From a virus (Duplodnaviria; Caudoviricetes), in IMG/VR virus record IMGVR_UViG_3300033076_001145, positions 128,001 to 192,000 of that record: DNA of 64,000 bases. One strand, written 5' to 3'. The position numbers and the translations under genes were made by a program. This document shows, piece after piece, positions 23,440-51,669 of this stretch. The notes beneath the pieces are model-generated. The model saw only the letters and a list, made by a program, of their open reading frames with translations. It searched no databases and was not told the DNA's origin. Every line of letters starts with the position of its first letter. Position 1 is the first letter of the stretch.

Positions 23440-23994
23440 TTAATTCAACCATTTTCTAACAGTATTGTCAGTAACTCCGAACTTTCGTGCGACTGAACTA
23501 TAACCTTCGTTAGCCACCATTTCAAATATAACTGATTTTTCCGGTCTGTCAACCTTTCTTCTTGATTTGTGAGCACATTCTTTACATTTATTCCCCCACT
23601 TACTTATCTCACATCCACAATCAGAGCAGTTATATTTTTTTGGTTCAGCTAAAGTAATCCATTTATCACTCTTTTCCAAATCATATTTTTCAATTTTTTT
23701 ACTAACATTTTCAATCATTAAGTCAGGAGAATGAACTTCTCTGTGACAATTTGCACACAAAACCATACATTTTTCAAATTCAGACATAATCCACTCCATA
23801 TTTGAATTAGATAGTGTTCTTGAATCTAATTGACTTTCTTTTGTATCTTTATCAATGTGGTGGAATTCTAAAGCCGCTAAATTTTTATTATATCCACAAA
23901 TTTCACATCCACCTCCTTTTAAATTAATTAAATGAGTTTTTCTCTTCAAAGACCTCATTACCTGATATTCATAAGTGTTCCCTTGTTTTCTCAT
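23440..23994 (-). CDS. HNH endonuclease with Zn-finger and HTH tail
   Basis: CEICG, LEFHH, LCANCHREVH, C-terminal HTH; abuts tRNA. Confidence 0.85.
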   Translation of the reverse strand: MRKQGNTYEYQVMRSLKRKTHLINLKGGGCEICGYNKNLAALEFHHIDKDTKESQLDSRTLSNSNMEWIMSEFEKCMVLCANCHREVHSPDLMIENVSKKIEKYDLEKSDKWITLAEPKKYNCSDCGCEISKWGNKCKECAHKSRRKVDRPEKSVIFEMVANEGYSSVARKFGVTDNTVRKWLN

Positions 23995-24360: not shown

Positions 24361-24390
24361 AATAAAATAAATATCATGTAAAATAAAAAA

Positions 24391-24481
24391 ACCCTCACTT
24401 GGATGGTAGTCTCAACCTTCCTTCAAAAGGGTTAATGTAAAATTTGATATTTGTAACTTTCTTTTTGAGGGTGTGCTCAAC
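24391..24481 (+). CRISPR. Mini-array A: partial repeat 24391-24416, 29-nt spacer, degenerate 36-nt repeat 24446-24481
   Basis: Similar to consensus GGTGTTTGTGACCTTCATTTGGAGGGTATTCTCAAC. Confidence 0.6.
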
Positions 24482-24802
24482 CCATTTACCAATAAATTCT
24501 TTAGAGTCATTGTGTCCCATAGAATAGAAAGAAGAAATTTCTTTGATTAAACCATCACCGATAAAACACGAACCGTCGTCTTTATCATATCTAATTTGAG
24601 CATATTTGTCACTTTTTGAATTGACAAAATAAATTCTATTTTTTTCTTTAATCTGAATGAAGTCCTGATTGTTTAAGTATTCAAATACTGAATTATCTAA
24701 TTCTGACTCTGACTGAGGAATTGTGTCTCCACCACCTTTTTTAATAATTCTTTTTACTAGACTTAGTAAATCTGATTCTGTCAATCTAATTACCTTTTTC
24801 AT
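24395..24802 (-). CDS. FSYLD/WVEN paralog with LTESDL leader; C-terminus encoded by CRISPR-like repeat and spacer
   Basis: VFEYLNNQDFIQI...YAQIRYD...WVEHTLKKKVTN. Confidence 0.75.
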   Translation of the reverse strand: MKKVIRLTESDLLSLVKRIIKKGGGDTIPQSESELDNSVFEYLNNQDFIQIKEKNRIYFVNSKSDKYAQIRYDKDDGSCFIGDGLIKEISSFYSMGHNDSKEFIGKWVEHTLKKKVTNIKFYINPFEGRLRLPSK

Positions 24803-24859
24803 GTTATTATAAATACAGATAAAAACAAAAAACCCCTCAACAAGGAGGGGTTTAAGTTA

Positions 24860-25873
24860 TTATTTTACAATCTTCGTGGTATATAATTTACCTGAGTCAT
24901 CATTAATTAGAATGACATAGGTTCCCTGACTTAGATTTTCGGAATTAATTGTCATCATGTTTGTTGTGTATTTGTTTTGATAAACACATCGTCCATCAAC
25001 TGACATAATCTTAATGTTTCCGTTATTAGATGGTGTAACCACATTAATATTATCCATCACAGGATTTGGACATACCTTAACATTATTGGTCATTGTTTCT
25101 TCAACACCAACAGTATAACTATCAACAACACTCAATGTCCATTCAGTCATAATACCACCAGGATACCAACCTGTTGAGTCAATGGTGAATGTTAAACAAG
25201 TATCAGCAAAACATCCATCAAATGAATAAGCCCATACACAGATTTGATATGTTCCAACACCTCCATAAGTTGTTGTTGGGAATGCAACATTTGCTGAGTC
25301 ACCATTACCAAAATTCCAAGTATATCCAATGCAGTTTGAAGATTGGTTAATCAAAAAGATTACATTATCTTCGATTACAACTGAATCAGAAGAAACAAAA
25401 GACATATCCAAGTATGGGGTCGTTTCAAGTTGTCCGTCACAGTTATTATCAATACCATCACACATTTCCCATGCTCCGGGATATGTATTTGGGTTAAAAG
25501 CATCACAATCATATTCATCATTCCAACCATCATTATCACTATCAATACCAGTAACCAAATCAATTGAGTATTCATTAACTGCTCCGAAGATAACAATACC
25601 ACCATCGCATTGGGTCATCCCAACACAATTGGTCGCACATAGATTAACATAAACACTATTACCAACCACAGGAACCGATGTTGTGTAAACACCTGATGGG
25701 TCGGAAGTAAAAACCAATTCACCTGTTGTTTGGTTTAAGGAGTCAATATACATACCTGTAACGGTATATGGACAATTTGTATCACCAATAACGGTCAAGT
25801 TAATTGGGAATTGAGAAAACACATTAAGTGTTAGGATGCTCATAAGAGCGAAAAGAAAAGTTTTTAGTTTCAT
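24860..25873 (-). CDS. Secreted protein with Cys/Asp metal-binding motif, PKD-like domain and T9SS type A CTD
   Basis: Signal peptide; DCDAFNPNTYPGAWEMCDGIDNNCDG; WNFGNG; VCPNPV...DGR...LSQGTYVI...TTKIVK. Confidence 0.8.
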   Translation of the reverse strand: MKLKTFLFALMSILTLNVFSQFPINLTVIGDTNCPYTVTGMYIDSLNQTTGELVFTSDPSGVYTTSVPVVGNSVYVNLCATNCVGMTQCDGGIVIFGAVNEYSIDLVTGIDSDNDGWNDEYDCDAFNPNTYPGAWEMCDGIDNNCDGQLETTPYLDMSFVSSDSVVIEDNVIFLINQSSNCIGYTWNFGNGDSANVAFPTTTYGGVGTYQICVWAYSFDGCFADTCLTFTIDSTGWYPGGIMTEWTLSVVDSYTVGVEETMTNNVKVCPNPVMDNINVVTPSNNGNIKIMSVDGRCVYQNKYTTNMMTINSENLSQGTYVILINDDSGKLYTTKIVK

Positions 25874-25981
25874 AATTTGTTTTTTTAAAGTTTAGACAAA
25901 GGTAATACAAATTAAGTTGATTGTAAAATAAAAACCCCCACATTTTCTGTGAGGGTTTAAGTGAAACCTTGTTATTATTTT

Positions 25982-26776
25982 TTAGAATTTTGTTCCGCAG
26001 TGTGGACAGAATTTATGATTATCTTTCTTTCTCTTACTTCCACAATTTGTGCAATAAAGAACATTCACCTCTTTTGCTTCAACTGGCTTTTCTGACATTG
26101 GCATTAGTCTCCAAGTTGAATATGACGATGGGAAAGAATTAAAATCCATATTCACTGATGTAAATTCCTGATTTGAACTTCCACCTTTTTCAACACGACC
26201 TGTTTCTTTAAACCTGTCAGTTGATAATGACTTCTTTAGATTTTGAGAAGTGTTATAATCAACATTATTATTTAAGTTATAGGATGTGTTGGTGAAATAA
26301 CTATTATTTCCCGATGTTAAGTTTGTTGTGGTGTTATAGAGTTTAATATTACCACCAGTAGTATTGTAACCACCATAATATCCATAATCACCGTGTTCAT
26401 TTGTAAAAGTTATACTTCCACCATAAGGATTTTCTTCATAGAACTCAACCTCAACAACTCCGTTGTTTTTGATTGCCTCTTGAACCTCTTTGGATTTGGC
26501 ATTGACCTCATAGGTTTCAAACTTGAACTTTCTTGCTTCGTCCAAATACCTTTCAAGAAAAACCCTTTGACCTGGTCTTAATACAACTCCACCACCACCG
26601 ATGTAGTTTCCGTTAATTTTAAGTTTTGCTAAAACTGAATTTTGTTGGGGGTTGAAGATTTCAACTTCAAATTCATCCCCATCTTTTAGATAAACGACAC
26701 TTCCATTTTGTTTTAGTCGTTGTTTCCCTACTGTAATGAAAGCAGTAGGATTCTTTTTAAATGATTTGTAATACAT
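25982..26776 (-). CDS. Hypothetical protein with C-terminal zinc ribbon
   Basis: CTNCG...FCPHCGTKF. Confidence 0.7.
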   Translation of the reverse strand: MYYKSFKKNPTAFITVGKQRLKQNGSVVYLKDGDEFEVEIFNPQQNSVLAKLKINGNYIGGGGVVLRPGQRVFLERYLDEARKFKFETYEVNAKSKEVQEAIKNNGVVEVEFYEENPYGGSITFTNEHGDYGYYGGYNTTGGNIKLYNTTTNLTSGNNSYFTNTSYNLNNNVDYNTSQNLKKSLSTDRFKETGRVEKGGSSNQEFTSVNMDFNSFPSSYSTWRLMPMSEKPVEAKEVNVLYCTNCGSKRKKDNHKFCPHCGTKF

Positions 26777-26888
26777 TTTTTTACCTTATTTTATTGTTTA
26801 TGTTTATTGAACCCCACTTCGTTGGTATTTCTCCAACTCAACTGTCTCAAAGGACAGGTGGACCTCAGCAACAAGGTTTCATTAATAA

Positions 26889-27239
26889 TTATAAGGTAAT
26901 TTGTTTTTGTGTAAAGATTAATTGGGGGGTATTCTCAACCATCAGCTCCTTTGTTGGAAATGATATCGGGGTATTTGTAACCTTCATTTGGGTGGTATTC
27001 TCAACCCATCGTCCAATAACTTTTTCAGAATCAGAGCGTTGTAAAGAAAAGTAGGAATAAATTTCGTTAGTTAAATTAAAATCAATAAAACACCAACCAT
27101 CATCTTTATCAAATCTTATTCGAGCGTATTTATCATTCTCTGAATTTACAAAACAAATTTTATCATTACCCATATCAATCTGAATGAAGTCCTGACTATC
27201 CAAATAAGAAAATATTACTCTTTCTAAATGTTTGTCCAT
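26889..27239 (-). CDS. FSYLD/WVEN paralog; C-terminus encoded by repeat, spacer and second repeat
   Basis: MDKHLERVIFSYLDSQDF...WVENTTQMKVTNT-PISFPTKELM-VENTPQ. Confidence 0.8.
   Translation of the reverse strand: MDKHLERVIFSYLDSQDFIQIDMGNDKICFVNSENDKYARIRFDKDDGWCFIDFNLTNEIYSYFSLQRSDSEKVIGRWVENTTQMKVTNTPISFPTKELMVENTPQLIFTQKQITL
26920..27005 (+). CRISPR. Mini-array B: partial repeat ending 26939, 30-nt spacer 26940-26969, repeat 26970-27005
   Basis: GGTATTTGTAACCTTCATTTGGGTGGTATTCTCAAC. Confidence 0.75.
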
Positions 27240-27253
27240 GATTATAAATATGA

Positions 27254-27550
27254 TTAATAACCAACAATTGGACTAGCAACCTCCACATTAATAGATTCAA
27301 TTCCGAGTTTATCTTCAATCCATTTATTGATTACACTAATGGAATCCCCATAATCTAAAGAAAAGAATTTGCTGACTTCTTCGGCCAAATCATAGTGTAT
27401 TGTGCACCATCGGTCTTTTGGGAGGTATTTAATCTGAGCAAATTCATCATCTTCTGAATTAACAAAATATATCCTATACTTCATTTTAATTACAACAAAG
27501 TCCTGTCCATCCAAATAAGAAAATATTACTCGTTCTAAATGTTTGTCCAT
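27254..27550 (-). CDS. FSYLD paralog without a recognisable DNA repeat
   Basis: MDKHLERVIFSYLDGQDF...FAQIKY...WIEDKL. Confidence 0.8.
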   Translation of the reverse strand: MDKHLERVIFSYLDGQDFVVIKMKYRIYFVNSEDDEFAQIKYLPKDRWCTIHYDLAEEVSKFFSLDYGDSISVINKWIEDKLGIESINVEVASPIVGY

Positions 27551-27570
27551 GATTATAAATACATTAGTTA

Positions 27571-27714
27571 GGTATTCTCAACAGAGCAGTGGAAACGTTT
27601 TCAGAACTATAGGTGTTTGTGACCTTCATTTGGAGGGTATTCTCAACAAGAGATGAATAGCGAATACCTTCCCGCTTGGGTGTTTGTGACCTTCATTTGG
27701 AGGGTATTCTCAAC
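27571..27714 (+). CRISPR. Mini-array C: 12-nt partial repeat, 29-nt spacer, repeat 27612-27647, 31-nt spacer, identical repeat 27679-27714
   Basis: Two identical 36-nt repeats GGTGTTTGTGACCTTCATTTGGAGGGTATTCTCAAC with unrelated spacers. Confidence 0.85.
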
Positions 27715-27951
27715 CCATTTACCAATAACTTGTTCAGAATCAGAGCTTTGCAAAGAAAAGAAAGAAGAAATTTCTTTAACTAAATTAGTATGAATAAAAC
27801 ACCATCCATCATCTTCGTCATATCTAATTTGAGCGTATTCGTCACCTTCTGAACTAACAAAAAAAATTTTATCATTACCCATATCAATCTGAATGAAGTC
27901 TTGGCTATCCAAATAAGAAAATATTACTCGTTCTAAATCTTTGTCCATCAT
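27643..27951 (-). CDS. FSYLD/WVEN paralog; stop codon supplied by the second repeat
   Basis: ...WVENTLQMKVTNT-QAGRYSLFISC*. Confidence 0.8.
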   Translation of the reverse strand: MMDKDLERVIFSYLDSQDFIQIDMGNDKIFFVSSEGDEYAQIRYDEDDGWCFIHTNLVKEISSFFSLQSSDSEQVIGKWVENTLQMKVTNTQAGRYSLFISC

Positions 27952-28466
27952 AACTTAATCCCAGTATTATATATGGTTTCCCAATTATTTTTCTCACAAT
28001 AATCCAAAAAGTCCTTTGGTGAATATCTATATGACTCCTCAATCCCATATACCCATGAAACAAACTCAGAGCAATACATCTTATCCTGTTCATGGTTCAA
28101 TGGTTTTTTATTCCACTTACCAGTTAATAATTCAATCGGTTGTTTGATAATTAATCCCTCAAAGTCATAAGCCGTTAATCCAACTTTGCTCATGGCTTTA
28201 ACCGCAATTTTCTTTTCAGCAATTACCTTTGGTCTTCTTTGGATGATGAAGTTATATTGGTATTCTTTAAGCCAGTTTTCAAATGGTTTAACATTAACTC
28301 CATTATCCTGAGCATCAATGATATATGGTTCACCCCATATCCAAATGAAAAGAGCTGTGTGATTTATTTCAGACTTTGTTGCCCATCTTATGGCTCTACT
28401 CAACCAACTTTTTCCACGACAATGTAACACATCACCGGTTTTTAATTCATCTATATTCAAACTCAT
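27948..28466 (-). CDS. Permuted papain-like (YiiX/YaeF, NlpC/P60) amidase
   Basis: LKTGDVL, HTAL, YDF, MYCSEFV. Confidence 0.8.
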   Translation of the reverse strand: MSLNIDELKTGDVLHCRGKSWLSRAIRWATKSEINHTALFIWIWGEPYIIDAQDNGVNVKPFENWLKEYQYNFIIQRRPKVIAEKKIAVKAMSKVGLTAYDFEGLIIKQPIELLTGKWNKKPLNHEQDKMYCSEFVSWVYGIEESYRYSPKDFLDYCEKNNWETIYNTGIKL

Positions 28467-28548
28467 AATGATAAATATTGGAATATATAATAAAAAAGTC
28501 TTTCCATTTATTCAAACATAATATATTTATTTATTAAACAATTAAATT

Positions 28549-29160
28549 TTGGAAATTTCATCAGAAGTTATAGTTGCGTTTATTACAGGTGTAGTTGGGC
28601 CAACATCTATCATGTTTTTAAAACATTACCTAACCGCAAAGAAAAAGAAACCAGATTTGGTTCATGAGACCTTAAAGGTTAGCGAACTTGTCAATTCAAA
28701 GATTGAACACATTAAAGAAGAATTCAATGCCGATAGAGTATGGATAACTCAATTCCATAATGGTGGGAACTTCTATCCAACAGGAAAATCAATGGCAAAG
28801 TTCAGTATCATTTATGAAACAGTTCATCCCGGTGTTAATTCAATTCAATCAAACTTCCATAACATTCCAGTTAATTTGTTTTCAAAGTCAATCAATGAAT
28901 TATTACAAAATGATATAATTGAAATCCCTGATTTTAAAGATGAAAAAATTTCCACATTTGGTTTAAAATATGTCGCAGAAGAGAACGGATGTAAGTCAGG
29001 TTACCTTTTCGCAATTAAAACAATTGATGGAAGATTTATTGGAACCTTAGGTTTGGACTATACAAAGAGAAAGACAAACTTAGATATGGAATCAATTAAT
29101 CATTTACAAGTCCACGCATCTTCTTTGGGTGGAGTTTTAATGACTCACTTAAATCAATAA
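28549..29160 (+). CDS. N-terminal TM + GAF-like domain protein (possibly holin-related)
   Basis: One TM; ADRVWITQFHNG...FIGTLGLDY GAF-like pattern. Confidence 0.55.
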   Translation: MEISSEVIVAFITGVVGPTSIMFLKHYLTAKKKKPDLVHETLKVSELVNSKIEHIKEEFNADRVWITQFHNGGNFYPTGKSMAKFSIIYETVHPGVNSIQSNFHNIPVNLFSKSINELLQNDIIEIPDFKDEKISTFGLKYVAEENGCKSGYLFAIKTIDGRFIGTLGLDYTKRKTNLDMESINHLQVHASSLGGVLMTHLNQ

Positions 29161-29166
29161 GATTAA

Positions 29167-29520
29167 TTAGAAACTCTTTTTCCACTTTAATAAGTAGAGA
29201 CCTCTTTCTTTGTTGAGAGGTTCAAAACTTATTCTAAAGTTGTCGTTTAACTGAGCATAAACAGGATAAATTGGAAATTTCCATCCTTCGGTTTCTATAT
29301 GGAATCCCGCCATTCCAACAGGACTATTTTTAATTTTATCTATAAAACTTTTTGGAGTCTCCTCTTTACCGAAATTAACTTTAAGTTGGGTTTTAAAATC
29401 GTCAGGGATTTGAATAGTTGAAATTTTATTAATAGGTCCCTTATCAGTTATTTGTTCTTCAATAACTCGTTTAACAATCTTAACCAAATCTGATTCTGTC
29501 AATTTAATAACCTTTTTCAT
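29167..29520 (-). CDS. Protein with LTESDL leader
   Basis: MKKVIKLTESDLVKIVKRVIEEQ. Confidence 0.7.
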   Translation of the reverse strand: MKKVIKLTESDLVKIVKRVIEEQITDKGPINKISTIQIPDDFKTQLKVNFGKEETPKSFIDKIKNSPVGMAGFHIETEGWKFPIYPVYAQLNDNFRISFEPLNKERGLYLLKWKKSF

Positions 29521-29589
29521 ATTAAATAAATATATCAATGTTTTTCTTTTTTATTCCATAAATTTTATATCTTAGCCAAAATTATAACA

Positions 29590-30255
29590 ATGGAACTAAA
29601 CTATCCCAACTTAACGGAAGACCAAAAATCAAAGATTGACAAGTTCGTTTCTGACTTGGAAAAGAAATGTGCTGAAAACAATGTTGAGTTGTTTCTTCCC
29701 AACACACCTGGCGTTCAATACCCAGGTTTGGACACCCAAACCAATGGTTATTTTGATTCAAGAAAACCACTTCTTGCTTGTGCAACAGGTAAGGAACTTG
29801 ATAAGTGGTTGTTAATCTTAATTCACGAGTCATCACATATGGACCAGTTTTTAGAAAAGGTTTCAGTATTTGATGAGTCAATTGGATTAGATGAAACATT
29901 TCAATGGATTGGTGGTCTTGAAACTCCTGACTTTGACAAGATTGATAGAGAAATCACATCAGGTATTGCCGTTGAGGTTGATTGTGAGAAAAGAACCGTT
30001 GAGAAGATTAAAGAATACGGATTGGAGTTTGTGGTTGGGATTGATGAATACATTCAAAAATCAAACGCATATGCTCTCTTTTACCTATGGATGAGAAAGA
30101 ACAGAAGTTGGTATAAGATTGGATTTGAGCCATACAATGTTAAATCCATTTATTCCAAGATGCCAAAAACATTTGATGTTGATTATTCAACATTGACAGA
30201 AGATATGACTGAAGCATTTGACGAGTTGTTAGTAATGTCGGATGGGGTTAAATAA
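29590..30255 (+). CDS. HExxH metallopeptidase-like protein
   Basis: LIHESSH...EVDCE. Confidence 0.6.
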   Translation: MELNYPNLTEDQKSKIDKFVSDLEKKCAENNVELFLPNTPGVQYPGLDTQTNGYFDSRKPLLACATGKELDKWLLILIHESSHMDQFLEKVSVFDESIGLDETFQWIGGLETPDFDKIDREITSGIAVEVDCEKRTVEKIKEYGLEFVVGIDEYIQKSNAYALFYLWMRKNRSWYKIGFEPYNVKSIYSKMPKTFDVDYSTLTEDMTEAFDELLVMSDGVK

Positions 30256-30302
30256 AAAACCCCATCCTTTAGGGATAGGGTAAATCTCTTTTTTAGATTT
30301 GA

Positions 30303-30656
30303 TTACTTGGTGTAAGTTCTTAGACAATGTGCCGCCCAAGCCGCCGCTCCAAGAAAGATTGGCATCAATAGACCTGCTCCACCGAACATTGCAATATGAA
30401 CCGCAACCGCTCCTGACATTACAGATGAAAGAACCAACGCTCCATAAACAGATGTTCTTGGGATACAAAGGGCAATTACACCAGCAACTTCCATAACTCC
30501 AACAAGTGCCATGTAAGGTAACATGTTCATTGCAGTAAAGTTAGTGGTCATAGCCTCGCTTCCCATAATCTTTGACAATCCGCCCATTCCGAGCATAAAG
30601 GTTACGATTACTGTAAGCAACCAACCTAAGTTTTTAAGTGTTAAATAATTTTTCAT
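30303..30656 (-). CDS. DoxX-family membrane protein
   Basis: GLSKI, GVMEVAG, PRT..GA, GAVAVH; 4 TMs. Confidence 0.8.
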   Translation of the reverse strand: MKNYLTLKNLGWLLTVIVTFMLGMGGLSKIMGSEAMTTNFTAMNMLPYMALVGVMEVAGVIALCIPRTSVYGALVLSSVMSGAVAVHIAMFGGAGLLMPIFLGAAAWAAHCLRTYTK

Positions 30657-30700
30657 ATTCCAAGTATAGGATATGAACTTTACAATGTCAATTGATTTTT

Positions 30701-30787
30701 ATTTGGAGGGTATTATCAACGGATTGAAAAATTGCCTTTGCTCAATGCCATGGTGTTTGTGACCTTCATTTGTAAGGTATTCTCAAC
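30701..30787 (+). CRISPR. Mini-array D: 20-nt partial repeat, 31-nt spacer, repeat 30752-30787
   Basis: GGTGTTTGTGACCTTCATTTGTAAGGTATTCTCAAC. Confidence 0.8.
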
Positions 30788-31012
30788 CCACCTACTGATA
30801 ACTTGTTCAGAATCAGAGCGTTGCAAAGAAAAGTAATAAGAAATTTCTTTAATTAAATCCAAACCAATATAACACAAACCATCATCATATCTAATTTGAG
30901 CAAATTCATCATTCTCTGAATAGGCAAAATAGATACTATCATATTTTTTAATCTGAATAAAGTCCTGACTATCCAAATAAGAAAATAATACTCTTTCAAA
31001 ATCTTTGTACAT
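30716..31012 (-). CDS. FSYLD/WVEN paralog
   Basis: ...WVENTLQMKVTNT-MALSKGNFSIR*. Confidence 0.8.
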   Translation of the reverse strand: MYKDFERVLFSYLDSQDFIQIKKYDSIYFAYSENDEFAQIRYDDGLCYIGLDLIKEISYYFSLQRSDSEQVISRWVENTLQMKVTNTMALSKGNFSIR

Positions 31013-31025
31013 GATTATAAATATA

Positions 31026-31355
31026 TTAGTTGGGTATTCTCAACCACTTGTCAATATTCATATACGCATCGGTGGTTTTTGTAACTTTCATTTTTAAGGT
31101 ATTCTCAACCCACCTACTGATGACTCTTTGGGATTCGTCTCGTCCTAAATTAAAGAAAGAAGAAATTTCTCTATTTAAATCGATATTAATAAAACAAACA
31201 CCTCTATCTTCATCATATCTAATTTGAGCAAGGTCGTCACTTTCTGAATTAATAAAGAATAAACTTGTGTCATTACCTGTAATAATAAAATCCTGATTGT
31301 CAAGATACTTAAATATTACTTTATCAAATTGTGATTCGGTTATAAGGTATTTCAT
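31026..31355 (-). CDS. FSYLD/WVEN paralog with ITESQ leader
   Basis: MKYLITESQ...WVENTLKMKVTKT-TDAYMNIDKW-LRIPN*. Confidence 0.8.
   Translation of the reverse strand: MKYLITESQFDKVIFKYLDNQDFIITGNDTSLFFINSESDDLAQIRYDEDRGVCFINIDLNREISSFFNLGRDESQRVISRWVENTLKMKVTKTTDAYMNIDKWLRIPN
31032..31109 (+). CRISPR. Mini-array E: partial repeat 31032-31044, 29-nt spacer, repeat 31074-31109
   Basis: GGTTTTTGTAACTTTCATTTTTAAGGTATTCTCAAC. Confidence 0.7.
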
Positions 31356-31367
31356 ATAAGATAAATA

Positions 31368-31685
31368 TTAATAAGGAACCATTAATATGGGTACCTCATT
31401 TCTTAAATAACTTTGAACAACCATTACATCACTTATTTTAAATTTGTGTTTAATCCACAAACCTATAATTTTTTGAGAATCTTCTTTAGATATAGAAAAG
31501 AAAGAAGAGACTTCCTTACACAAATTATCAGACATCCCAACCCAAGGGATATCATAATCAAATCTAATTTGAGCATATTCATCACCTTCTGAATTAACGA
31601 AGTATATTTCCTCCTCCCCATCAATCTGAATGAAGTCCTGACTATCTAAATAAGAAAATATTACTCTTTCTAAATCTTTGTCCAT
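31368..31685 (-). CDS. FSYLD paralog (repeat decayed or absent)
   Basis: MDKDLERVIFSYLDSQDFIQI...WIKHKF...ILMVPY. Confidence 0.8.
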   Translation of the reverse strand: MDKDLERVIFSYLDSQDFIQIDGEEEIYFVNSEGDEYAQIRFDYDIPWVGMSDNLCKEVSSFFSISKEDSQKIIGLWIKHKFKISDVMVVQSYLRNEVPILMVPY

Positions 31686-32767: not shown

Positions 32768-33799
32768 TTATTTAATAATTCTTGTGGTATAAACCTTACC
32801 TGAGTCATCGGTCATAACAATTACATATGAACCATTACTCAATAGATTACCATCAATCTGAATTTGTTTTTGGTTGAAGTTCTGACTAAACACAACCTTA
32901 CCATCAACTGACATAATCTTTACATTAGTATTATTAGATGGCGCAGAAATGTTAATTACCTCACCGATTGGATTTGGCCAAACCTTAATGTTGTTGGTCA
33001 ATACCTCAACACCTGTTGTATAATCAGGCACAATATTCAAAGTATATTCTGACATAATTCCACCAGGGAACCATCCTGTTGAGTCAATTGTGAATGTCAA
33101 ACAAGAGTCAGTCATACATCCATTAGGTGAAAAAGCATACAAACAAGGTGTATATGTCCCAGGTGAATCGTAGATAAATGATGTATATAACGATAGGCTA
33201 TCTACACCGCTCGCCAATCCCCAGTCCCATCCCCAGAAATTTGCGCCAGTCGTTTCACAAACAACATAGATTGTGTTTGGTTCAGATACCAATGAGTCAG
33301 GAACAAAATACATACTGATTGTTGGTGGGGTGTTCAATACTCCATCGCAGTTATTATCAACACCATCACAAGCCTCGAGAGCACCGGGGTAGGTAAATGG
33401 GTCATAATCGTTACAGTCATTACCTCCAGATTCAATTGATAGGTATCCATCATCATCCATATCATCAAAAATAGGCATTACAATATCAAATGTGGTAACC
33501 GCACCAGGTGTTACAATACCACCGATACATTGTGCCGTTCCCTGACAATCAATCGCACATATTGAAACATATACATCGGTACTATCAATAGGTGGCGCCG
33601 AAGCAATCCAAACCCCATTTGGACTATAAGAAAACATCAAAGGTCCTGTCCAAGTACTATCATCCAATGAGTAATCCCCAACTACGGTAACCGGACAATT
33701 TGGATTTTCACCAACAACATAAACATTGATTGGGAATTGAGAGAACACATTAAGTGTTAGAATGCTCAATAGAGCAAAAAGAAAAGTTTTTAATTTCAT
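32768..33799 (-). CDS. Paralog of 24860-25873: secreted protein with T9SS type A CTD
   Basis: Near-identical signal peptide; DCNDYDPFTYPGALEACDGVDNNCDG; VWPNPI...TTRIIK. Confidence 0.8.
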   Translation of the reverse strand: MKLKTFLFALLSILTLNVFSQFPINVYVVGENPNCPVTVVGDYSLDDSTWTGPLMFSYSPNGVWIASAPPIDSTDVYVSICAIDCQGTAQCIGGIVTPGAVTTFDIVMPIFDDMDDDGYLSIESGGNDCNDYDPFTYPGALEACDGVDNNCDGVLNTPPTISMYFVPDSLVSEPNTIYVVCETTGANFWGWDWGLASGVDSLSLYTSFIYDSPGTYTPCLYAFSPNGCMTDSCLTFTIDSTGWFPGGIMSEYTLNIVPDYTTGVEVLTNNIKVWPNPIGEVINISAPSNNTNVKIMSVDGKVVFSQNFNQKQIQIDGNLLSNGSYVIVMTDDSGKVYTTRIIK

Positions 33800-34351: not shown

Positions 34352-34546
34352 AACAAACCATCTACGCTAACCGTAGTTGTAGATTTTACTGATGGTTGGT
34401 TCCCCATCACCTGTTATGTGTGCACCATAGAGCAGGGTCCATCACAGTATACCTTGGGTCATTTTACACTTCATTTGTGGTAGCTACTCCACGGTGAAGC
34501 CAAGGTCTCTTTCAACGGTGCTAATCCGTCTTCTGTAAGGTTTGTT
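34352..34546 (-). ncRNA. Candidate ~195-nt structured RNA
   Basis: Terminal helix AACAAACC/GGTTTGTT, several internal hairpins; lies between tRNA-Tyr and a terminator. Confidence 0.55.
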
Positions 34547-34548
34547 TG

Positions 34549-34629
34549 TTGTGGTGGACGGACTCGAACCGCCAAGCCCGAAGGACCTGATTTACAGTCA
34601 GGCGAGCCAACCAATTGCTCAACACCACA
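34549..34629 (-). tRNA. tRNA-Tyr(GTA)
   Basis: CCTGA-CT-GTA-AA-TCAGG; variable arm. Confidence 0.9.
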
Positions 34630-34635
34630 ATGTAG

Positions 34636-34710
34636 TATCGCGTATCGGATTCGAACCGATGGTCTTTGCCGTGAAAAGGCAACGATTTAAACCAGCTAAT
34701 CTAACGCGAC
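34636..34710 (-). tRNA. tRNA-Glu(TTC)
   Basis: TTGCC-TT-TTC-AC-GGCAA. Confidence 0.88.
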
Positions 34711-34827
34711 ATTTAAAAAAGAAAGCTTATAGTGTCCACATTTTCCACTATAAGAAGTAACGACCAGTCAAGTTGTGAATCTTACTTTATGTCGCCTGCA
34801 ACAGGTGAAACTTACTTCTATCTTTTA

Positions 34828-34978
34828 GTTGACTAATAAGGAATTGAACCTTAATCCTGTTTTACCTTTCCCCGTCCTCATGCGGACTGTCAGTACTCCG
34901 TTCTACCGTGCACCATTACACCATAATCAAGCGAGAGTTTCGAACCTCTCAGGTTTCAGGTTAATTACTCCTGAACTT
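34828..34978 (-). ncRNA. Repeated structured RNA family C, copy 1 (two hairpins + tRNA-like body)
   Basis: Homologous to 47163-47313 with compensatory changes. Confidence 0.7.
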
Positions 34979-34980
34979 TG

Positions 34981-35061
34981 ATGCGGGAGGAGGACTCGAA
35001 CCTCCGAGGCTTTCGCTGAGGCTTATGAGACCTCCCAGATACCAACTTCTGACACCCCGCA
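34981..35061 (-). tRNA. tRNA-Met(CAT) with long variable arm
   Basis: GAGGT-CT-CAT-AA-GCCTC; extra arm GCGAAAGC. Confidence 0.8.
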
Positions 35062-35950
35062 ATTTAATATTTCAATTTAACATTCAGTCGTTCCTGAATT
35101 GTTTTACAAATGTAAGTAATAAATACTCTCGTGTCAAGAAAAATTTTATTTATATACTCTCACTACTCCATTTTTACCTATAATTGAGTCCTGATGTGGT
35201 TCTAATGTGAAATGTACTGTGTGACCTAAACAAGGATAGTATCTATGTTTAACACACTCTTCCCACTCTCTACGAAATTTACCATTATTACCATTAGTAT
35301 ATGTCTTCCATTTAACACATTCTTGACATTCACTATTGTAATAAACAAAATACGATGTTTTGAAGATAGTAAAGACCACTAATCCTATTATCAAAAAAGT
35401 GAATAAGATGTATAGTTCCCCGTCCTTATTCCACTTATCGTATGTTTTTCTCCAGTTACTTTTCATAATTATTTTTTTGTAGTGCGCTTTCTCATTACGC
35501 AATACCTAACTATTTTATTTTTACAGTTGACTTAATCTCTCCCGATAAATTAACACGAATATCTAAAGCGTGTAACGAATCAATAACTATATATCTTTCG
35601 CTGTCTATCTTATACACAACACCATTAGGGTACTTTGTTTGTAACATCTCTATGTCTTGAGATATGGTGGTTGTACTTGTGTCACATCCAGTTAAAAACA
35701 TCCCTATGCTTAATATCGCAATTATTCTTTTCATATTTTTTATTCTTCTTCGTCTTTGGTTAATTCAGTATACTCTAATGCAAATTGTATTAACCCATTA
35801 AGGTATTGCCACTTTTGACATCCGTTTGGGTAACTTGGGAATATCTCTTTAAGTTTTTGTTCTTGCCATTCTCTTTCAGAAGGGGTGGGCGATAGCCATT
35901 GACCATCAACATCATCTGGTTTTATGTACCAACTCATATCTTTATTTTTT

Positions 35951-38141
35951 GTAGTCAGGACAGGATTCGAACCTGTACGTTCAATGTGGCAGACTATCCT
36001 ACCTGCGACCTGTACACTGAATTAAACAGTGACACATTGAACTCACTTAGCGTCTACCAAAATTACTCATTGACCCCGTAATGGATTCGAACCACATTTA
36101 GTAATTTCCCACTTGAACGGGGTTGAAGTAATTATTCCGCCACCTGACTATTTGTTTTAATAATGATATTTTATTGTTGTTTTTAAACAACCATCAACAA
36201 CTTTAGTTGTAATTAAATGAATTACACATTTACCATTAACTTTCATTCTTCCAATTACTTCTTGAGCAATATCAAAAGGTAATGTTAAATACATATCTTC
36301 TGATTTTTGGTTAATAAATGTTTTCATACTTTTATTTTTTAGTTTAGTAGTCAGGACAGGAATTGAACCTGTAAGTAATGGAAGTTCCTCAACCTCTCCC
36401 TAAGTTCAGTGTCTTTGTGCCCTGCCCTTTGTTTTATACTTTGGCTACCATTCCGCCACCTGACTATGTTACCAGTCTTTCCTGGTCGTCACCTTGCTCC
36501 GCAGGTATGAACCCGCATTGCCCTTGGTTGGGTCTATTTGGAAAAGTCACGGTCGGCTCTGTTTCCAAATCATTTTTGTGGTTGACGGCTCAATCCGACA
36601 CGACCGATTACTCCCACATTCGTACTCAGAGAAGGACTTGAACCTTCATGTCATTTCTGACTCGGTAAATTACCTTAGCGTCTTTCCATCGGGTTTAATG
36701 CATTTCACCTCGCTTCCGCCACCTGAGCATCTTTATTTTCTAACATATTCCATCATCTCTCTCATTTTGGAAATCAATAGTTCCATTTCATCTACATTGA
36801 GGTACATACGAGAACTTTCTGAACCATCCAACTCTTTTGTTTCAACGATAATTCCATTATACGTCTCCGTTGGGTATACCTCAACTTCTTGTTCTTCTGT
36901 TGATATTGTTACTTTGTGCCAAACTTTATTCTTCATGCTATAAAATATTAAATTGTTTAAGTTCAATTACTATACCGATTATGGATATCAAGAATAAGGA
37001 TACCTTTATCATACTATCAGTGAAGGTATTGTTTGACCATCTAAAACACATCCATAGTGTGAAGATGATACAGTAAATTGTGAATATGTGTCCTAATAAT
37101 TCCATTATTGTAATTTTTTAATTATTTCAACAAATATATGGATATTTTTCTACCTTACCAAATTTATTTTTAAAAATCTAACATATTCAATTGTAATTTT
37201 GCAATCAAAGTATCTTCTTCGGGTCTTGAGTCCAACCCTAATGAGATACTTCTTCCGTGACAAGAACAAGTTGGGTTACCATCTTTGTTTACACCGAAGG
37301 ATATGAATCCAGCACTAATAGGTTTCCAATCACTGAAATCTGAATGTTGTATCATTTCAGGAAACACGATGATTTCTCTATTTCGTGTTATGATGTATTT
37401 TTGTTTTAAGTCCATACGACAAAGATAATACTAATTTTTTAAATAGACAATTTTTTTTGTAGTCAGGACAGGACTCGAACCTGTATGAGGTAACTGTTGT
37501 GACTTCATGATGCGGAGCAGTGTTATTTCCTTACGCTTACTCTATTACTCACTCGCAATTCGCTATGCCAATTTGCCACCTGACTATTTTTATATTTTAA
37601 TCTTTAATCAATGCTTTGATTAGTTGGGTCGCTATCATCATCACTATTACGGAGAAAAATATTTCCCTCCGTCATAACCACCCAAATCACAATCAATGTA
37701 AAAACAATAAGTCCTATCATAATATCAATTTTAATTTATTTTTATAGTCAGGACAGGATTCGAACCTGTAACAGAGTATTCTTAGTTGCGAACAACGACT
37801 TTCTCCTTTCTGACATTGTAAGCCTTATACCAATGATATCAATAGCGTCTACCATTCCGCCACCTGACTATTTTGTTTTTACAATAAATAATGCCGTATT
37901 AACATACCTAATATGAATGATAATATCGTCATTAAAATAAACATTGTTTTAGATATTTCCTTATGTTTCATATTTCTAATTTTAGTAGTCAGGACAGGAA
38001 TCGAACCTGTATAGGTGTCAGTCATAAACTGATTGCTTCTACTGTTATAGAGTTCTTTTGCTCCACCGAACCTAAACATCTTACGTTCACTACCTCACCA
38101 GGTTTCCGATGTTACGTCTAACCAATTCCGCTACCTGACTA
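35951..38141 (-). repeat. tRNA-scaffold elements, cluster 1 (6 copies)
   Basis: 35951-36150, 36347-36466, 36622-36728 (variant), 37459-37586, 37744-37870, 37985-38141; AGTCAGG-TGGCGGAAT...ACAGGTTCGAATCCTGT-CCTGACT with unrelated middles. Confidence 0.85.
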
Positions 38142-38374
38142 TTTTGTTAAAACTTAAATGGGTCCCAACTAGCAATACTCCATTCAACCATTAGTTCTTT
38201 TCTAACCTGTTTTTTCTTTTTTCTCGGCAAGTTACTAGACTCTCGGTATTTCTTAATAATCTTTTCCTTCCATATTTTACTTGTGTTTGAAAAGGTGTGC
38301 ATTTCGTTAATTGCCATTTGGTAAAATAACTCACCACCTCTACCGAATAAACTATCCATAATTTTTATTTTTTA

Positions 38375-38914
38375 TTAATCATTAAAAAGATTTACTAAAT
38401 AACTAAACATTTCATAATAAGGATGTGTGTTACTATCATCCCAACCCATATTTACGATAAAGTCATCATTCTCCTTCTTATACTTCTCAAACATATGACC
38501 ACCTGTCATTTTTGAGTATTGGACATTGGCAATACGGTCACACAACTTAACGAACACCGCTCCGTGAGTATTTCTGATACCTTCATAATACTTGTCGTTC
38601 GCTCTTTCCTTACGGTTCTTACCTTTCTCGTTGGTAAGTGCGTAGATGATATCAGCGGCAACTATACCTAATTCTTCCTTTACATCGTTGTAAGATACAC
38701 GAGTATCCTCAATCAAATCGTGACCCCATGCTCCAAGTAAGATATCCTCACCTGTCAATCCTGTTCCGTCATTACAAATATCAACAACCAAACTTCCAAA
38801 TTGTTTTGCAACATTCACAACCATTCTCAAATGAAACTCATAGGGAAGATATGTGTCGTACATATGATTTGTACTCTTATGTTGTTCTAATACCCAATTA
38901 ATCTTGTTTTCCAT
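38375..38914 (-). CDS. HD-domain hydrolase (RelA/SpoT hydrolase, Mesh1-like)
   Basis: PY.FHL..V, GHDLIEDT, ALT, VKLCDRIAN. Confidence 0.8.
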   Translation of the reverse strand: MENKINWVLEQHKSTNHMYDTYLPYEFHLRMVVNVAKQFGSLVVDICNDGTGLTGEDILLGAWGHDLIEDTRVSYNDVKEELGIVAADIIYALTNEKGKNRKERANDKYYEGIRNTHGAVFVKLCDRIANVQYSKMTGGHMFEKYKKENDDFIVNMGWDDSNTHPYYEMFSYLVNLFND

Positions 38915-38926
38915 AGGACAAAGATA

Positions 38927-39295
38927 CTACAATTTCTCAAAGTAAAAAAATATTGGTGACTTTTTTTCAATCAATAACCCAAAATCTTTTGCTAACCTAT
39001 AATTGGGGGTGTCCCTTTCCAATCTGTCAAGTGATGTCTCAACAACCTTTCTAAACATTTCAAGAGAATAGGTTGATTTCCACTTATTACATCTAGCACA
39101 AGATGGATTTAAGTTTTCAATGTCGTGGGAACCTTTATTAAGACCAGCTCGTTTGGCTTCACTTTCAGTTAAAGTATGCCAATGTGGTTCAATGTGGTCC
39201 ACTTGCATTTCTTTGTAGGTAATCTCCTTACCACAATAAGCACAATGTCCCTCACACTTTTGATAAACTTGTTCCCTGATTTCTTTTTTCATCAA
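38927..39295 (-). CDS. HNH endonuclease
   Basis: HCAYCG, MQVDHI, NLNPSCARCN. Confidence 0.85.
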   Translation of the reverse strand: MMKKEIREQVYQKCEGHCAYCGKEITYKEMQVDHIEPHWHTLTESEAKRAGLNKGSHDIENLNPSCARCNKWKSTYSLEMFRKVVETSLDRLERDTPNYRLAKDFGLLIEKKSPIFFYFEKL

Positions 39296-40018
39296 TTAGA
39301 TATCCAACACTCTTTTCTTGTAATAGTCATCAAAACCATCTAACATTTCGGTGATTGTCTTAGTGTCATCTCTTTTGATTACCTCATCAATCAATCCAAA
39401 CTCTTTTGCTTCGTCTGAGTTATACCATCTGTCACGAGTGGAGAATTCTAATACCTCATCAAATGTTTTTCCACAGTTCTCGGCCAACATTTTAAATAAA
39501 ATGTAGTTATACTTCTCACCTTCCATTTGGTCAATACGAGTATCTTGGATATTACCATGAGTTCCATGACTTACTTGGTGGGTCATAACCTTTGAATAGA
39601 CAAGTGACGACCTCTTACCTTTGGTCCCTGAAGATAATAATACCGAACCCATTGAAGCGCACATCCCGATATTGGTTGTTACAACATCTGATTTAATGTA
39701 GTTCATTAAATCAACAATACCAAGTCCGCACAACACCGAACCACCAGGTGAGTTAATATATAAAGTAATGTCTTTTTGTTCAACAGAATCCAAAAACAAC
39801 ATTTGAGCTTGGACAATATCTGACATTCGTTGATTAACCGCCCCTGACACCCATAAGATACGCTCTCTCATCAACCTCGAGAAGATATCAATCTGTGTTG
39901 CTCTCATTTCTCTTTCCTCCAACACATATGGTGTTAATGAGTTTTCAAACGCATCAAGGTTCATAGATGAGATACCCTCACTTAATGCAAACTTTCTAAA
40001 TTCTTTTCCGTAATTCAT
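39296..40018 (-). CDS. clpP: ATP-dependent Clp protease proteolytic subunit
   Basis: DIFSRL..ERI, YINSPGG, CASMGS, MTHQ, RDRW, FGLIDEV. Confidence 0.95.
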   Translation of the reverse strand: MNYGKEFRKFALSEGISSMNLDAFENSLTPYVLEEREMRATQIDIFSRLMRERILWVSGAVNQRMSDIVQAQMLFLDSVEQKDITLYINSPGGSVLCGLGIVDLMNYIKSDVVTTNIGMCASMGSVLLSSGTKGKRSSLVYSKVMTHQVSHGTHGNIQDTRIDQMEGEKYNYILFKMLAENCGKTFDEVLEFSTRDRWYNSDEAKEFGLIDEVIKRDDTKTITEMLDGFDDYYKKRVLDI

Positions 40019-40443
40019 TTTTTATTTTAATTGTTTTATACCTCTACAAGTCTCTCTGTGATTAGTCGTGTCCCAAAGTTTGGGATTAACCATATGACAG
40101 GTATGTTTTCTACCTGTTCTTTCAACAAATTCTCGTAATTTTTTATTATGGTTGTTTTCAACCTTCCAAGGACATTCCTTACAACAAGACATAGTTTAAG
40201 ACTCTTGGGTTAGTAATCTGTTGTATCTATTTTCATCAATCGCAATTCTCATTCTTGACTCGGTTGAACGGTATAAATCCGAACCAACACCACCTAATTG
40301 TTTCTCATACATATTAAGGTAATTTCTAACTAACTTACGACAAGCAATGTCTTGCATTGGGTGAGTACAAGAATCAATTACACTTATAACCCACAACATA
40401 GTTTCATACCATCCATTCATAGTTTTATGTATTAAAAAGTTTG

Positions 40444-40519
40444 TGAAGAAGACGGGAATCGAACCTCGTGGCACAAGGGATTTCTGTCCCTCTGCTCTAC
40501 CGACTGAGCTACTTCTTCA
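40444..40519 (-). tRNA. Atypical tRNA (Phe-like, irregular anticodon loop)
   Basis: Good acceptor, D and T arms; GAGGGA-CAGAAA-TCCCTT gives a non-7-nt loop. Confidence 0.55.
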
Positions 40520-40583
40520 TTTAAAAAGGTAAGTCCGACTTCCCTATCCGTGTGGTGTTTCACGAGTCGGACTTGTTTTTGTT

Positions 40584-41057
40584 AGATTCACCAATATAGT
40601 ATTTCCTCGGATATGTCCCAAGAGATTGGGACCATAGTAACCGTCCACCGAGGACCTATACTCTCACACTCCGTCCTGTCCCTACTCACTTAATCAAATT
40701 AGTCATAAGCTTCTCGGTCGAGGCGTTCAGTGTTACCCTCAAGACATCTTCACCCTACCACCATAGTTACTTGGTTAGCCTCACTCGGAAGATGAGTGTG
40801 TATCGTAAGATTGTCTAGTTTTCTTACGACTTGTGGATTTCAACACGACTACTTAAAGCCCCTAACCCTTTTAATCCATAACGAGGGTATCTAATTCATT
40901 GTTCCCTATCATACTTGGTTGAACTTCCCCAAACCAATTAACACCGATTAAGTAGTGCTATATGTATTTCACGTTCTGTGTAGCCTCCCCCATAGCCTTG
41001 GAGCCTTCAAGCCAGGTTCACACTGTCCAACCGCAGATAAACGGTATTGTGGGGTCT
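40584..41057 (-). ncRNA. Candidate ~475-nt structured RNA
   Basis: No ORF, raised GC, terminal helix and nested long hairpins. Confidence 0.6.
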
Positions 41058-41697
41058 TCTTTACAAATTAGATTACTCCGACTTCGGACATTGCTTCATC
41101 AGCATATTCCATGATGATGTCAGATTCAACTAATTCAGTCGCTTCAGTGAAAACTTCTCTCAATTTGTCCTCATCAACGTAAGTGTTAATTTCACGACCA
41201 TCAACATCAAAAGATACTACTTCATCTGAATCAAGGTTTGAGAATGCTTCGTCAAAGATAAACTGATTAACTTTGTTGGTGTATTCAATCAAGAAGTCCT
41301 CAAGTTGTTGTCTTGTGAAGACAATTTCACCTTCCTCAACACCAGCGTCGGATTTAACTTCATTTAATTGTGATTGGATTTCGTTAATACGCTCAATCAA
41401 TTCGTTGTTTTGTTTTTTGTTTTTCTTACTCATAATATTCATTTTTGGTGTTTTCATTTCTTTTACAAATATACAACGAATTTTTTACTTGGACAAGGTG
41501 TAGATGTTATTTTCATCTAAAATAATTTCACCCTTATCACCAATCTGAATACCCAAACCTTCCATAACAATTTGGAAATTTGTTTCACTCATAACATTAG
41601 CCTTAACTAATTTTTTGTATCCTAAAATAAAATCCATCAATTCAGGTTCAGAAATAAATCCTTTTTCAATAACTGGTATCATAGTTTAAAATTTTTG

Positions 41698-41769
41698 AGG
41701 TCGGAGTTGGATTCGAACCAACGTAAGAGCTTTTGCAGAGCTCCACTTAAACCACTCAGACATCCGACC
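41698..41769 (-). tRNA. tRNA-Cys(GCA)
   Basis: GAGCT-CT-GCA-AA-AGCTC; U73. Confidence 0.9.
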
Positions 41770-41838
41770 TTGTTTGTGAATACAAATATATAACATATAT
41801 CTATTCAAAATCAAATTTTTTTCTTAATATTTACTATT

Positions 41839-42498
41839 ATGGATATTGAATTTTTTTTAAAACAGTTTTTAGAACATAATTCTGAAATAGAATGTGATAA
41901 TGGACTTAAATTAGTATGGAATGGCGAATTTGAGACCACAAAATATAAAGATAATGAATATGAAATTCCAGTCTATAAAGTATCTAATCCTAACAATTCA
42001 CCTTACACAAGGAGCGCCTTAGAATATTATGTTGAGAGTTCCCTTTACACATTTAGAAAAATGTTACCTATATTGGAAAACTCTATACCTAGCGTATTTT
42101 TATATATAGTAGATTCTTTAGATTTCTACATATCCCCTAAAACTGAAATGAGATTAACAAAATGTTTAGGTTCAATTAGTATTGAGGATGAGTCGTTTTC
42201 TATTGATGGTCAGAATGTTGTAATTTCAGGTAGTTTCACCGGTGATTATGAAATGGATTTAGATGATGTAACAGTAATTTGTATTTGCGATTTTCAAATT
42301 GATTCCGTAACCGTTGACGGAGAAGACATCTACTACGACGAGGACGAATTTGATAGAATAAAAGACGAAATATATGACTATGATTCTGATTGGTTTGACA
42401 TCCCCACTTGGGGTTGTTTATCACAATTATATAACTCAAATAATTTTGTCAGCAAAGATGACATGGGGTGGAACACAGGTGTTCGTCTTATTATCTAA
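41839..42498 (+). CDS. Acidic hypothetical protein
   Basis: 219-aa ORF. Confidence 0.6.
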   Translation: MDIEFFLKQFLEHNSEIECDNGLKLVWNGEFETTKYKDNEYEIPVYKVSNPNNSPYTRSALEYYVESSLYTFRKMLPILENSIPSVFLYIVDSLDFYISPKTEMRLTKCLGSISIEDESFSIDGQNVVISGSFTGDYEMDLDDVTVICICDFQIDSVTVDGEDIYYDEDEFDRIKDEIYDYDSDWFDIPTWGCLSQLYNSNNFVSKDDMGWNTGVRLII

Positions 42499-44065: not shown

Positions 44066-44109
44066 GCTGATAAATATCTGATAAGACATATTGGAAAAAT
44101 AAATAGTTG

Positions 44110-44182
44110 TACCCCCGGAGAGACTCGAACTCCCACGTCTCTAAATCCGTATTTTAGTGTTTTTCCATTAAACTACAGGGGC
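44110..44182 (-). tRNA. tRNA-Arg(ACG)
   Basis: CTAAA-AT-ACG-GA-TTTAG. Confidence 0.8.
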
Positions 44183-44188
44183 AAAAAG

Positions 44189-44276
44189 CGGAGAGCGGTG
44201 GAATCGAACCACGCACAACTTAATGAGATACTGTTTAGCAAACAGTCGGGGACACCATTTCCCTCCTTCACTCTCC
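44189..44276 (-). tRNA. tRNA-Ser(GCT)
   Basis: ACTGT-TT-GCT-AA-ACAGT; long variable region; G73. Confidence 0.85.
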
Positions 44277-44278
44277 AA

Positions 44279-44356
44279 TGGTGTGTCTAGCGGGATTCGA
44301 ACCCGCGATGACCTGAGCCACAATCAGGCGACTTAAACCTCTTGTCAATAGACACC
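44279..44356 (-). tRNA. tRNA-His(GTG)
   Basis: CCTGA-TT-GTG-GC-TCAGG; G-1; encoded CCA. Confidence 0.88.
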
Positions 44357-44832: not shown

Positions 44833-44922
44833 GAGGATGAGAAGTCCTCTGTGTTGTGAGCATACCGCATAATGCTTGTTCATACCCCATACATTAACTT
44901 CCTTTCTCAAAGGAACAACACA
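44833..44922 (-). ncRNA. Repeated structured RNA family B (kissing-loop), copy 1
   Basis: TGTGTTG-TTCC(TTGAGAAA)GGAA...CAACACA-GAGGA(CTTCTCA)TCCTC. Confidence 0.7.
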
Positions 44923-45837: not shown

Positions 45838-45844
45838 AAATAAG

Positions 45845-51647: not shown

Positions 51648-51669
51648 AGTTTTATTTATTAAAGTTTAG

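Follow-up and report, generated by a model that had tools for sequence, protein, structure and literature searches.

We found that five paralogous genes of a large uncultured lake phage end in CRISPR-type repeat-spacer units, which hold DNA of the likely bacterial host and are built into the coding ends of the genes. The stretch analysed (the window, 64,000 nucleotides (nt)) spans bases 128001–192000 of a 208,634-bp IMG/VR virus record, IMGVR_UViG_3300033076_001145, with a CheckV completeness of 71% and a genome GC content of 32% (32.0%). Within it, the units sit at the 3′ ends of minus-strand genes of 98–135 amino acids (aa), a family that we refer to as F1; two further F1 loci lie beyond the window at genome positions 102280–102703, bringing the genome to seven array-bearing copies, and a sister family, F2, is located elsewhere in the same phage genome. 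With moderate confidence, we propose that CRISPR-type spacer capture, probably by the Cas1–Cas2 of the host, rewrites the C-termini of this phage protein family.

According to this proposal, the final 12 codons conserved across a family of small phage proteins (VENTLQMKVTNT) would double as a 36-nt CRISPR-type repeat, and spacer integration would put 29–31-nt pieces of host chromosome right behind it, duplicating the repeat. The integrase would most likely be the type II-C Cas1–Cas2 of the infected host, acting on phage DNA. New units would enter gene-proximally while the far copy decays, holding stops in all three frames, and each insertion would give the protein a new C-terminal tail of ~10–17 residues, the outcome being hypervariable tails on a constant, confidently folded α/β domain.

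Repeat-spacer units at the coding ends of paralogous genes

The window holds six full 36-nt repeats, five degenerate end copies and six spacers unrelated to one another (29, 30, 29, 31, 31 and 29 nt for A, B, C1, C2, D and E), where the chance expectation for repeat matches is zero. Coordinates derived afresh agreed in every detail with the counts, lengths and gene-end placement given in an earlier note on this DNA (hereafter the original prediction), and likewise confirmed that the repeat is coding on the minus strand, where it encodes VENTLQMKVTNT directly after an invariant Trp codon. At every locus, the first repeat and the first spacer lie inside the open reading frame (ORF). Degenerate end copies differ from the consensus at 11–16 positions and keep their first 12–22 nt on the gene strand. 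The features, in window coordinates, are as follows (G738 is a species genome of the likely host genus, described below).

24395–24802 (−): paralogue A gene, 135 aa; ends ...WVEHTLKKKVTNI, then spacer-coded tail, then ..LRLPSK
24446–24481 (−): locus A first repeat, 8 mismatches to consensus
24417–24445 (−): spacer A, 29 nt, GC 0.28; source not found
24381–24416 (−): locus A degenerate end copy, of which the initial 22 nt remain, with 3 mismatches
26889–27239 (−): paralogue B gene, 116 aa
26970–27005 (−): locus B first repeat, 4 mismatches
26940–26969 (−): spacer B, 30 nt; source not found
26904–26939 (−): locus B degenerate end copy
27643–27951 (−): paralogue C gene, 102 aa; tail QAGRYSLFISC from spacer C2, closed by TGA within the next repeat
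27679–27714 (−): locus C first repeat, identical to consensus (0 mismatches); encodes VENTLQMKVTNT
27648–27678 (−): spacer C2, 31 nt; exact bacterial-chromosome copy (G738:C35:7306-7337, 100%)
27612–27647 (−): locus C second repeat, identical to the first (0 mismatches), out of frame
27583–27611 (−): spacer C1, 29 nt; distal, presumably older; source not found
27547–27582 (−): locus C degenerate end copy, of which only the initial 12 nt remain, followed by TAACTAAT..., which leads to the next paralogue's ATG
30716–31012 (−): paralogue D gene, 98 aa; tail MALSKGNFSIR
30752–30787 (−): locus D first repeat, 2 mismatches
30721–30751 (−): spacer D, 31 nt; exact bacterial-chromosome copy (G738:C85:10846-10876, 100%)
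30685–30720 (−): locus D degenerate end copy
31026–31355 (−): paralogue E gene, 109 aa; tail TDAYMNIDKWLRIPN
31074–31109 (−): locus E first repeat, 6 mismatches
31045–31073 (−): spacer E, 29 nt; source not found
31009–31044 (−): locus E degenerate end copy, of which the initial 12 nt remain
27254–27550 (−): paralogue without DNA repeat; protein motif W-I-E-D-K-L kept at the homologous place
31368–31685 (−): paralogue without DNA repeat; W-I-K-H-K-F

Repeat edges are sharp, second copies are mostly out of frame and the unit periods are 65, 66 and 67 nt, which excludes an in-frame duplication of a coding motif. In paralogue B, the degenerate copy is read as VENTPQLIFTQKQITL, because the 30-nt spacer B preserves the frame. 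A conserved block, TAACTAAT(G/A)TATTTATAAT..ATG, follows degenerate copies in the window (27547–27582 and 31009–31044) and elsewhere in the genome (102345–102380 and 102692–102727); it leads up to the start codon of the paralogue that follows, and may act as a promoter or ribosome-loading region that the loci share.

The original prediction had likened the repeat to those of type VI-B (Cas13b) systems, and this was borne out. In a scan of species genomes, ~35 arrays from Bacteroidota had 36-nt repeats of the form GTTG..GGTATnnnCAAC and periods of 65–67 nt; beside them, the large ORF was Cas13b in three of the four cases tested (NF038190; 782, 676 and 467 bits). Compared with a set of 24 VI-B-type repeats, three of them from the arrays with confirmed Cas13b adjacency, the F1 repeat averaged 19.2 matching positions out of 36 when read on the gene strand and 24.3 out of 36 when read on the + strand, against ~9 for shuffled sequences (z 5.2 and 6.8), and z was still 4.2–4.8 over the 24 positions left unfixed by the scan pattern. 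Individual best matches reached 22/36 on the gene strand and 27/36 on the + strand; both strands score because VI-B repeats are near-palindromes. We know of no bacterial array with exactly the F1 repeat: a scan of the genome_contigs set for arrays with the exact repeat core gave no match, and an Rfam scan of the window returned no CRISPR-repeat family.

The sister family carries the same architecture further. Two tandem F2 genes outside the window (genome 105443–107081; L092:5443-7081), 22–28% identical to F1 and sharing the invariant Trp, end in at least eight in-frame repeat-plus-spacer units, in which a 36-nt repeat, GGTGGAAGAGGTCTTAAATCATAAGGTATCTACAAC, encodes VEEVLNHKVSTT and spacers are exactly 30 nt long. 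The last 12 nt of this repeat are identical to those of the F. columnare repeat printed in PMC5395568. The 65 distinct F2 spacers in 13 contigs of related phages are uniformly 30 nt long, and none contains an in-frame stop, against 17 and 43 with a stop in the other two frames, which indicates that the F2 arrays are translated. A third F2 paralogue (L092:7083-7718) has a diverged repeat, kept at the protein level only.

With both families in hand, the orientation of the units can be considered. The + strand of the F1 repeat does fold better, as the original prediction had stated (−6.9 versus −2.5 kcal/mol for the gene strand; −10.9 kcal/mol for the F. columnare repeat), but in F2 it is the gene strand that is favoured (−4.2 versus −2.2 kcal/mol), and because the favoured strand is opposite in the two families, folding cannot decide the orientation; likeness to known repeats is in conflict between F1 and F2 as well. 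The complementary 5′-GUUG/CAAC-3′ end pair of VI-B repeats, which also have a poly-U loop, is present on neither strand of the F1 repeat, which reads GUUG...CACC on the gene strand and GGUG...CAAC on the + strand, with a U-rich loop on the + strand only. The F1 and F2 repeats occupy the same gene-strand codons and the degenerate copy is gene-distal in both families; we therefore take the minus strand as the array strand, with the gene body in place of a 'leader', rather than the + strand as originally assigned.

Host origin of the spacers and candidate acquisition enzymes

Scanning metagenomes with spacer C2, we matched two contigs of 41–42% GC (host contig 41.6%), which encode RecO, the DNA polymerase III delta' subunit (holB), a PSP1 protein, GldH and RlmN. 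An 82-kb contig with the same genes also carries AspRS, OmpA, PorP/SprF and CHU_C; GldH, PorP/SprF and CHU_C identify the source bacterium as a member of the Bacteroidota, and the AspRS shares 99% identity with its counterpart in G738, one of the 14 species genomes of its genus. G738 matches spacer C2 over 32/32 nt and spacer D over 31/31 nt, so that, of the six window spacers, a minimum of two reproduce the likely host's chromosome exactly. Spacer C2 takes in 5 nt upstream of a 106-aa host gene together with the initial 26 nt of that gene, to which the phage gene strand is antisense, while the protospacer of D lies within an FG-GAP/ASPIC repeat-protein gene beside nadC, the spacer again being antisense to the gene. 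Sister species hold the C2 site at 84–88% identity only, which indicates that this sequence belongs natively to the bacterial lineage, from which the phage copy derives.

Further spacers point to the same source. Two F1 spacers outside the window match the host genus at 93–97%, and F2 spacers match it at 100, 97 and 94%; among eight mapped protospacers, three are sense and five antisense to the host ORF. Mean GC over 41 F1 spacers of related phages is 42.3%, 6.7 standard deviations above phage 30-mers. The window spacers match the rest of the phage over 12–17 nt at most, providing no sign of self-targeting. The spacer search suggested by the original prediction thus gave two complete matches, C2 and D, both 100% in G738, and left A, B, C1 and E without a source.

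The arrangement of the units is informative about how they arose. At locus C, two identical repeats flank the gene-proximal, host-identical spacer C2, while the far copies are degenerate; the interpretation of this locus as spacer acquisition, made earlier from the repeats, has been upheld by the finding that C2 is an exact 31-nt chromosome copy between them. F2 arrays of related phages have distal spacers in common and differ at their gene-proximal ends, and in some homologues what seems to be an old tail is preceded by an added, newer unit. Arrays therefore appear to grow at the gene-proximal end and to decay at the far end.

We found no Cas1, Cas2, Cas4, Cas13b or Cas12f/TnpB in the 208-kb, 71%-complete phage record, extending to the whole record the original observation that the window contains no cas gene. 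Cas13b was likewise not detected in the 14 host-genus species genomes by a search that was positive in F. columnare (G001, 773 bits). Instead, G738 and a second genome of the genus, G741, carry a type II-C locus with Cas9, Cas1 (cas1_NMENI) and Cas2 (L187:1-4968 in G738; L186:5987-13546 in G741). The G741 array has 35 copies of a 47-nt repeat with spacers of 30 nt (31 cases) or 29 nt (3 cases), whereas in G738 the first repeat alone is seen, as the array ends at the contig edge; compared with the phage sequences, the 34 G741 spacers gave chance matches of 14–16 nt only. Type II-C Cas1 has been reported to fill a Cas1-less, 36-nt VI-B array in trans, host-genome spacers included (Hoikkala et al., PMC8092290). 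The same authors note that in other species the II-C repeat exceeds the VI-B repeat by ~11 bp, a difference also seen between the 47-nt repeat of the host genus and the 36-nt repeat of the phage.

Protein tails, guide RNAs or integration scars

What a spacer does to the protein depends on its length. With 31 nt, the frame meets a TGA inside the next GTTGA; with 29 nt, the next copy is read as LRIP(N/SK) followed by a stop; and with 30 nt, the frame runs through VENT to a TAA or reads on into another unit. Because the end copy stops in all three frames, each insertion leaves an ORF that is closed and carries a new tail. In a set of 5.8 billion proteins, the family comprises 1041 clusters, none of them named and none with a Pfam domain, and 112 close homologues display 94 distinct tails, about half of the LRIP type. 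An AlphaFold2 model of paralogue C shows a confident α/β domain (predicted local distance difference test, pLDDT, 91.7), in which the repeat forms the end of the last helix. A protein-atlas search scored 0.77, which is noise, and GenBank phages gave no match.

These observations fit the suggestion in the original prediction that acquisition diversifies protein C-termini: spacers are host-derived, the host has Cas1–Cas2, tails are hypervariable and in-frame stops are mildly depleted, occurring in 6/35 first spacers against 61/175 in the other frames (p=0.047). Codon changes in shared spacers, eight synonymous and eight non-synonymous, add weak evidence that the tails matter; spacer E, which related phages also carry, shows a mixture of both kinds. 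We infer that the integrase is that of the host and that tails rather than RNA are the selected product. A more far-reaching version, in which the phage borrows host Cas1–Cas2 capture as a diversity generator, turning host DNA into a new tail (in F2, an in-frame cassette) from which useful ones are selected, is plausible, and we put it forward tentatively, at slightly less than even chances. To our knowledge, CRISPR adaptation is known only as guide-sequence storage, and the literature searched, which covers Cas-less phage arrays and off-target integration, contains no description of arrays forming part of a reading frame.

Several results weigh against this reading. No protospacer-adjacent motif (PAM) or other flanking motif stood out among the eight protospacers. 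Spacers A, B, C1 and E had no source in the 14 host-genus genomes, and the same four went unmatched in a sample of 401 genomes from the order of F. columnare, with just two candidates scored per genome, and in five genomes with VI-B-type arrays; spacers of the related phages L123 and L116 also found no match in the host genus. On the enzymatic side, compatibility of the host Cas1–Cas2 with the phage repeat is an assumption, as the 47-nt host repeat is unlike the phage repeat in its middle, with the end motifs alone in common; 29- and 31-nt spacers are much commoner in the phage loci than in the host array, and a phage-borne integrase or effector could be missing from the 71%-complete record. 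Selection on the tails is weakly indicated in F1 (p=0.047), and the pairs compared are not independent. Homology searches of the family protein pointed to no function either: Pfam and PHROGs gave sub-threshold noise only, Foldseek against PDB gave E >0.3, and the best VIA-align score (Z 4.7, to homeodomains) was within noise.

The loci may be compared with systems already described. Type VI-B systems are defined by a 36-nt direct repeat and ~30-nt spacers, giving 66-nt CRISPR RNAs (crRNAs) in which the spacer precedes the repeat (Smargon et al., 10.1101/092577). Like VI-B arrays (F. columnare; PMC8092290; 10.1101/092577), the phage loci have a 36-nt repeat and 29–31-nt spacers, no adjacent cas1 or cas2, one-end growth, a degenerate last repeat and the possibility of host-genome spacers; unlike them, they have no Cas13b in the phage record or the host genus searched, each F1 repeat strand bears one of the two GUUG/CAAC ends, and they are phage-borne, with a protein-coding gene as 'leader', codons as first repeat and a spacer that is predicted to be translated. 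Features general to CRISPR arrays are also present, namely spacers that are foreign DNA with identifiable protospacers (C2 and D; two outside loci at 93–97%), repeat duplication, one-end entry and a degenerate last repeat. Constant DNA flanks around unrelated short coding cassettes, as in the phage loci, are found in cyanobactin PatE-type multi-core peptide precursors; unlike in those precursors, the phage cassettes are host DNA copies with CRISPR-type geometry, and no processing enzymes are seen.

The closest viral counterpart consists of the compact arrays of huge phages, which lack Cas1, Cas2 and Cas4 and often an effector, some having host-chromosome spacers (Al-Shayeb et al. 2020, PMC7162821). 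As in those phages, here a large uncultured phage has short arrays with host-matching spacers and no acquisition genes. The arrays of PMC7162821 are described as non-coding guide-RNA loci, however, whereas in this phage the units, with one or two spacers apiece, are scattered over seven paralogous genes, making up the 3′ end of each, and the family's tails change with the spacer. That precedent makes it worth asking whether our units, too, are Cas-less guide-RNA arrays, transcribed and processed, relying on an effector (Cas13b or another) that comes from the host or from an unseen phage gene, and either silencing host genes or soaking the effector up, with the gene overlap being incidental. 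We regard this as unlikely, even though spacer C2 followed by a full repeat on the gene strand has the order of a Cas13b crRNA (10.1101/092577), C2 is the complement of a host mRNA in its start region, and the + strand hairpin of −6.9 kcal/mol resembles a VI-B repeat. The 14 host-genus genomes gave no Cas13b, although the control search was positive, and the phage record gave no effector; GUUG and CAAC ends do not occur together on either strand; and the protospacers are of mixed orientation (three sense, five antisense to host ORFs). Moreover, most loci consist of a single spacer and a 12-nt stump, from which no complete gene-strand crRNA could form, and F2 arrays are held open in frame, which is needless for a pure RNA role. 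The specific form advanced in the original prediction, crRNAs antisense to the genes that hijack or decoy host Cas13b, is not supported, given that no Cas13b was detected in the 14 host-genus genomes, the minus-strand array and protospacers in both orientations.

A second alternative, to which we assign a similarly low probability, accepts acquisition by the host but denies it a function: Cas1–Cas2 loaded with fragments of degraded chromosome would occasionally mis-integrate them into replicating phage DNA, leaving neutral scars, with the repeat codons kept for the protein and the tails tolerated. Off-target integration at repeat-like sites is cited in several papers; the spacers do come from ordinary host genes in either orientation, and F1 arrays are short, with weakly supported selection on their tails. 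Such scars would not be expected, however, to preserve the repeat as DNA, at synonymous sites and in the out-of-frame second copies of locus C, or to leave the three-frame stop design of the end copy conserved. Nor do they readily account for the size of the family (1041 clusters, seven array-bearing copies here), for the different tail of nearly every close homologue, or for 65/65 F2 spacers being open and exactly 30 nt.

Finally, the idea that a coding motif was simply duplicated in tandem, its linkers diverging fast and its CRISPR likeness being a coincidence, is very improbable and is already contradicted by the exact host matches: the motif W-V/I-x-x-K/T-L is indeed ancestral to the family, including the paralogues without DNA repeat, but, unlike in protein tandem repeats arising by duplication, the units are out of frame (65-, 66- and 67-nt periods) and the linkers unrelated by descent, two being exact chromosome copies, while spacer GC is foreign to the phage and VI-B likeness lies at z 4–7 above shuffles.

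Coding context and significance

Other genes and RNAs of the window are recorded here for context. Directly upstream of paralogue C, overlapping its start by 4 nt, is a permuted papain-like amidase (27948–28466, minus; Peptidase_C92, YaeF/YiiX type). Two paralogous secreted proteins (24860–25873 and 32768–33799, both minus) have a type IX secretion system (T9SS) C-terminal sorting domain with MopE and PKD motifs; the DNA of the first shares 93% identity over 743 nt with a G741 gene of the host genus (C52:9225-9967), suggesting that phage and host exchanged genes recently. An HNH-endonuclease-like protein with Cys-rich and helix-turn-helix parts (23440–23994, minus; weak Pfam match) lies beside a tRNA-Met gene. 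The window RNAs comprise at least 28 tRNA genes, one GOLLD RNA and one freshwater-1 RNA: ~28 tRNA genes, of which several have anticodon regions that are oversized or odd, occupy 34548–54258 (minus), the freshwater-1 RNA (34384–34446, minus; 76 bits) adjoins them, and the GOLLD RNA (62830–63241, minus; 326 bits) is full-length.

In these loci, CRISPR geometry lies within the reading frames of a family of phage genes with more than 1000 members in public data, and it sets the C-terminal tails. Should selection act on the tails, they would represent a new route of protein diversification and a new viral use of a host immune enzyme; if RNAs are the product, guide arrays would be hidden within genes, misread by array finders and gene callers alike. 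Either way, the spacers link uncultured jumbo phages directly to their hosts.

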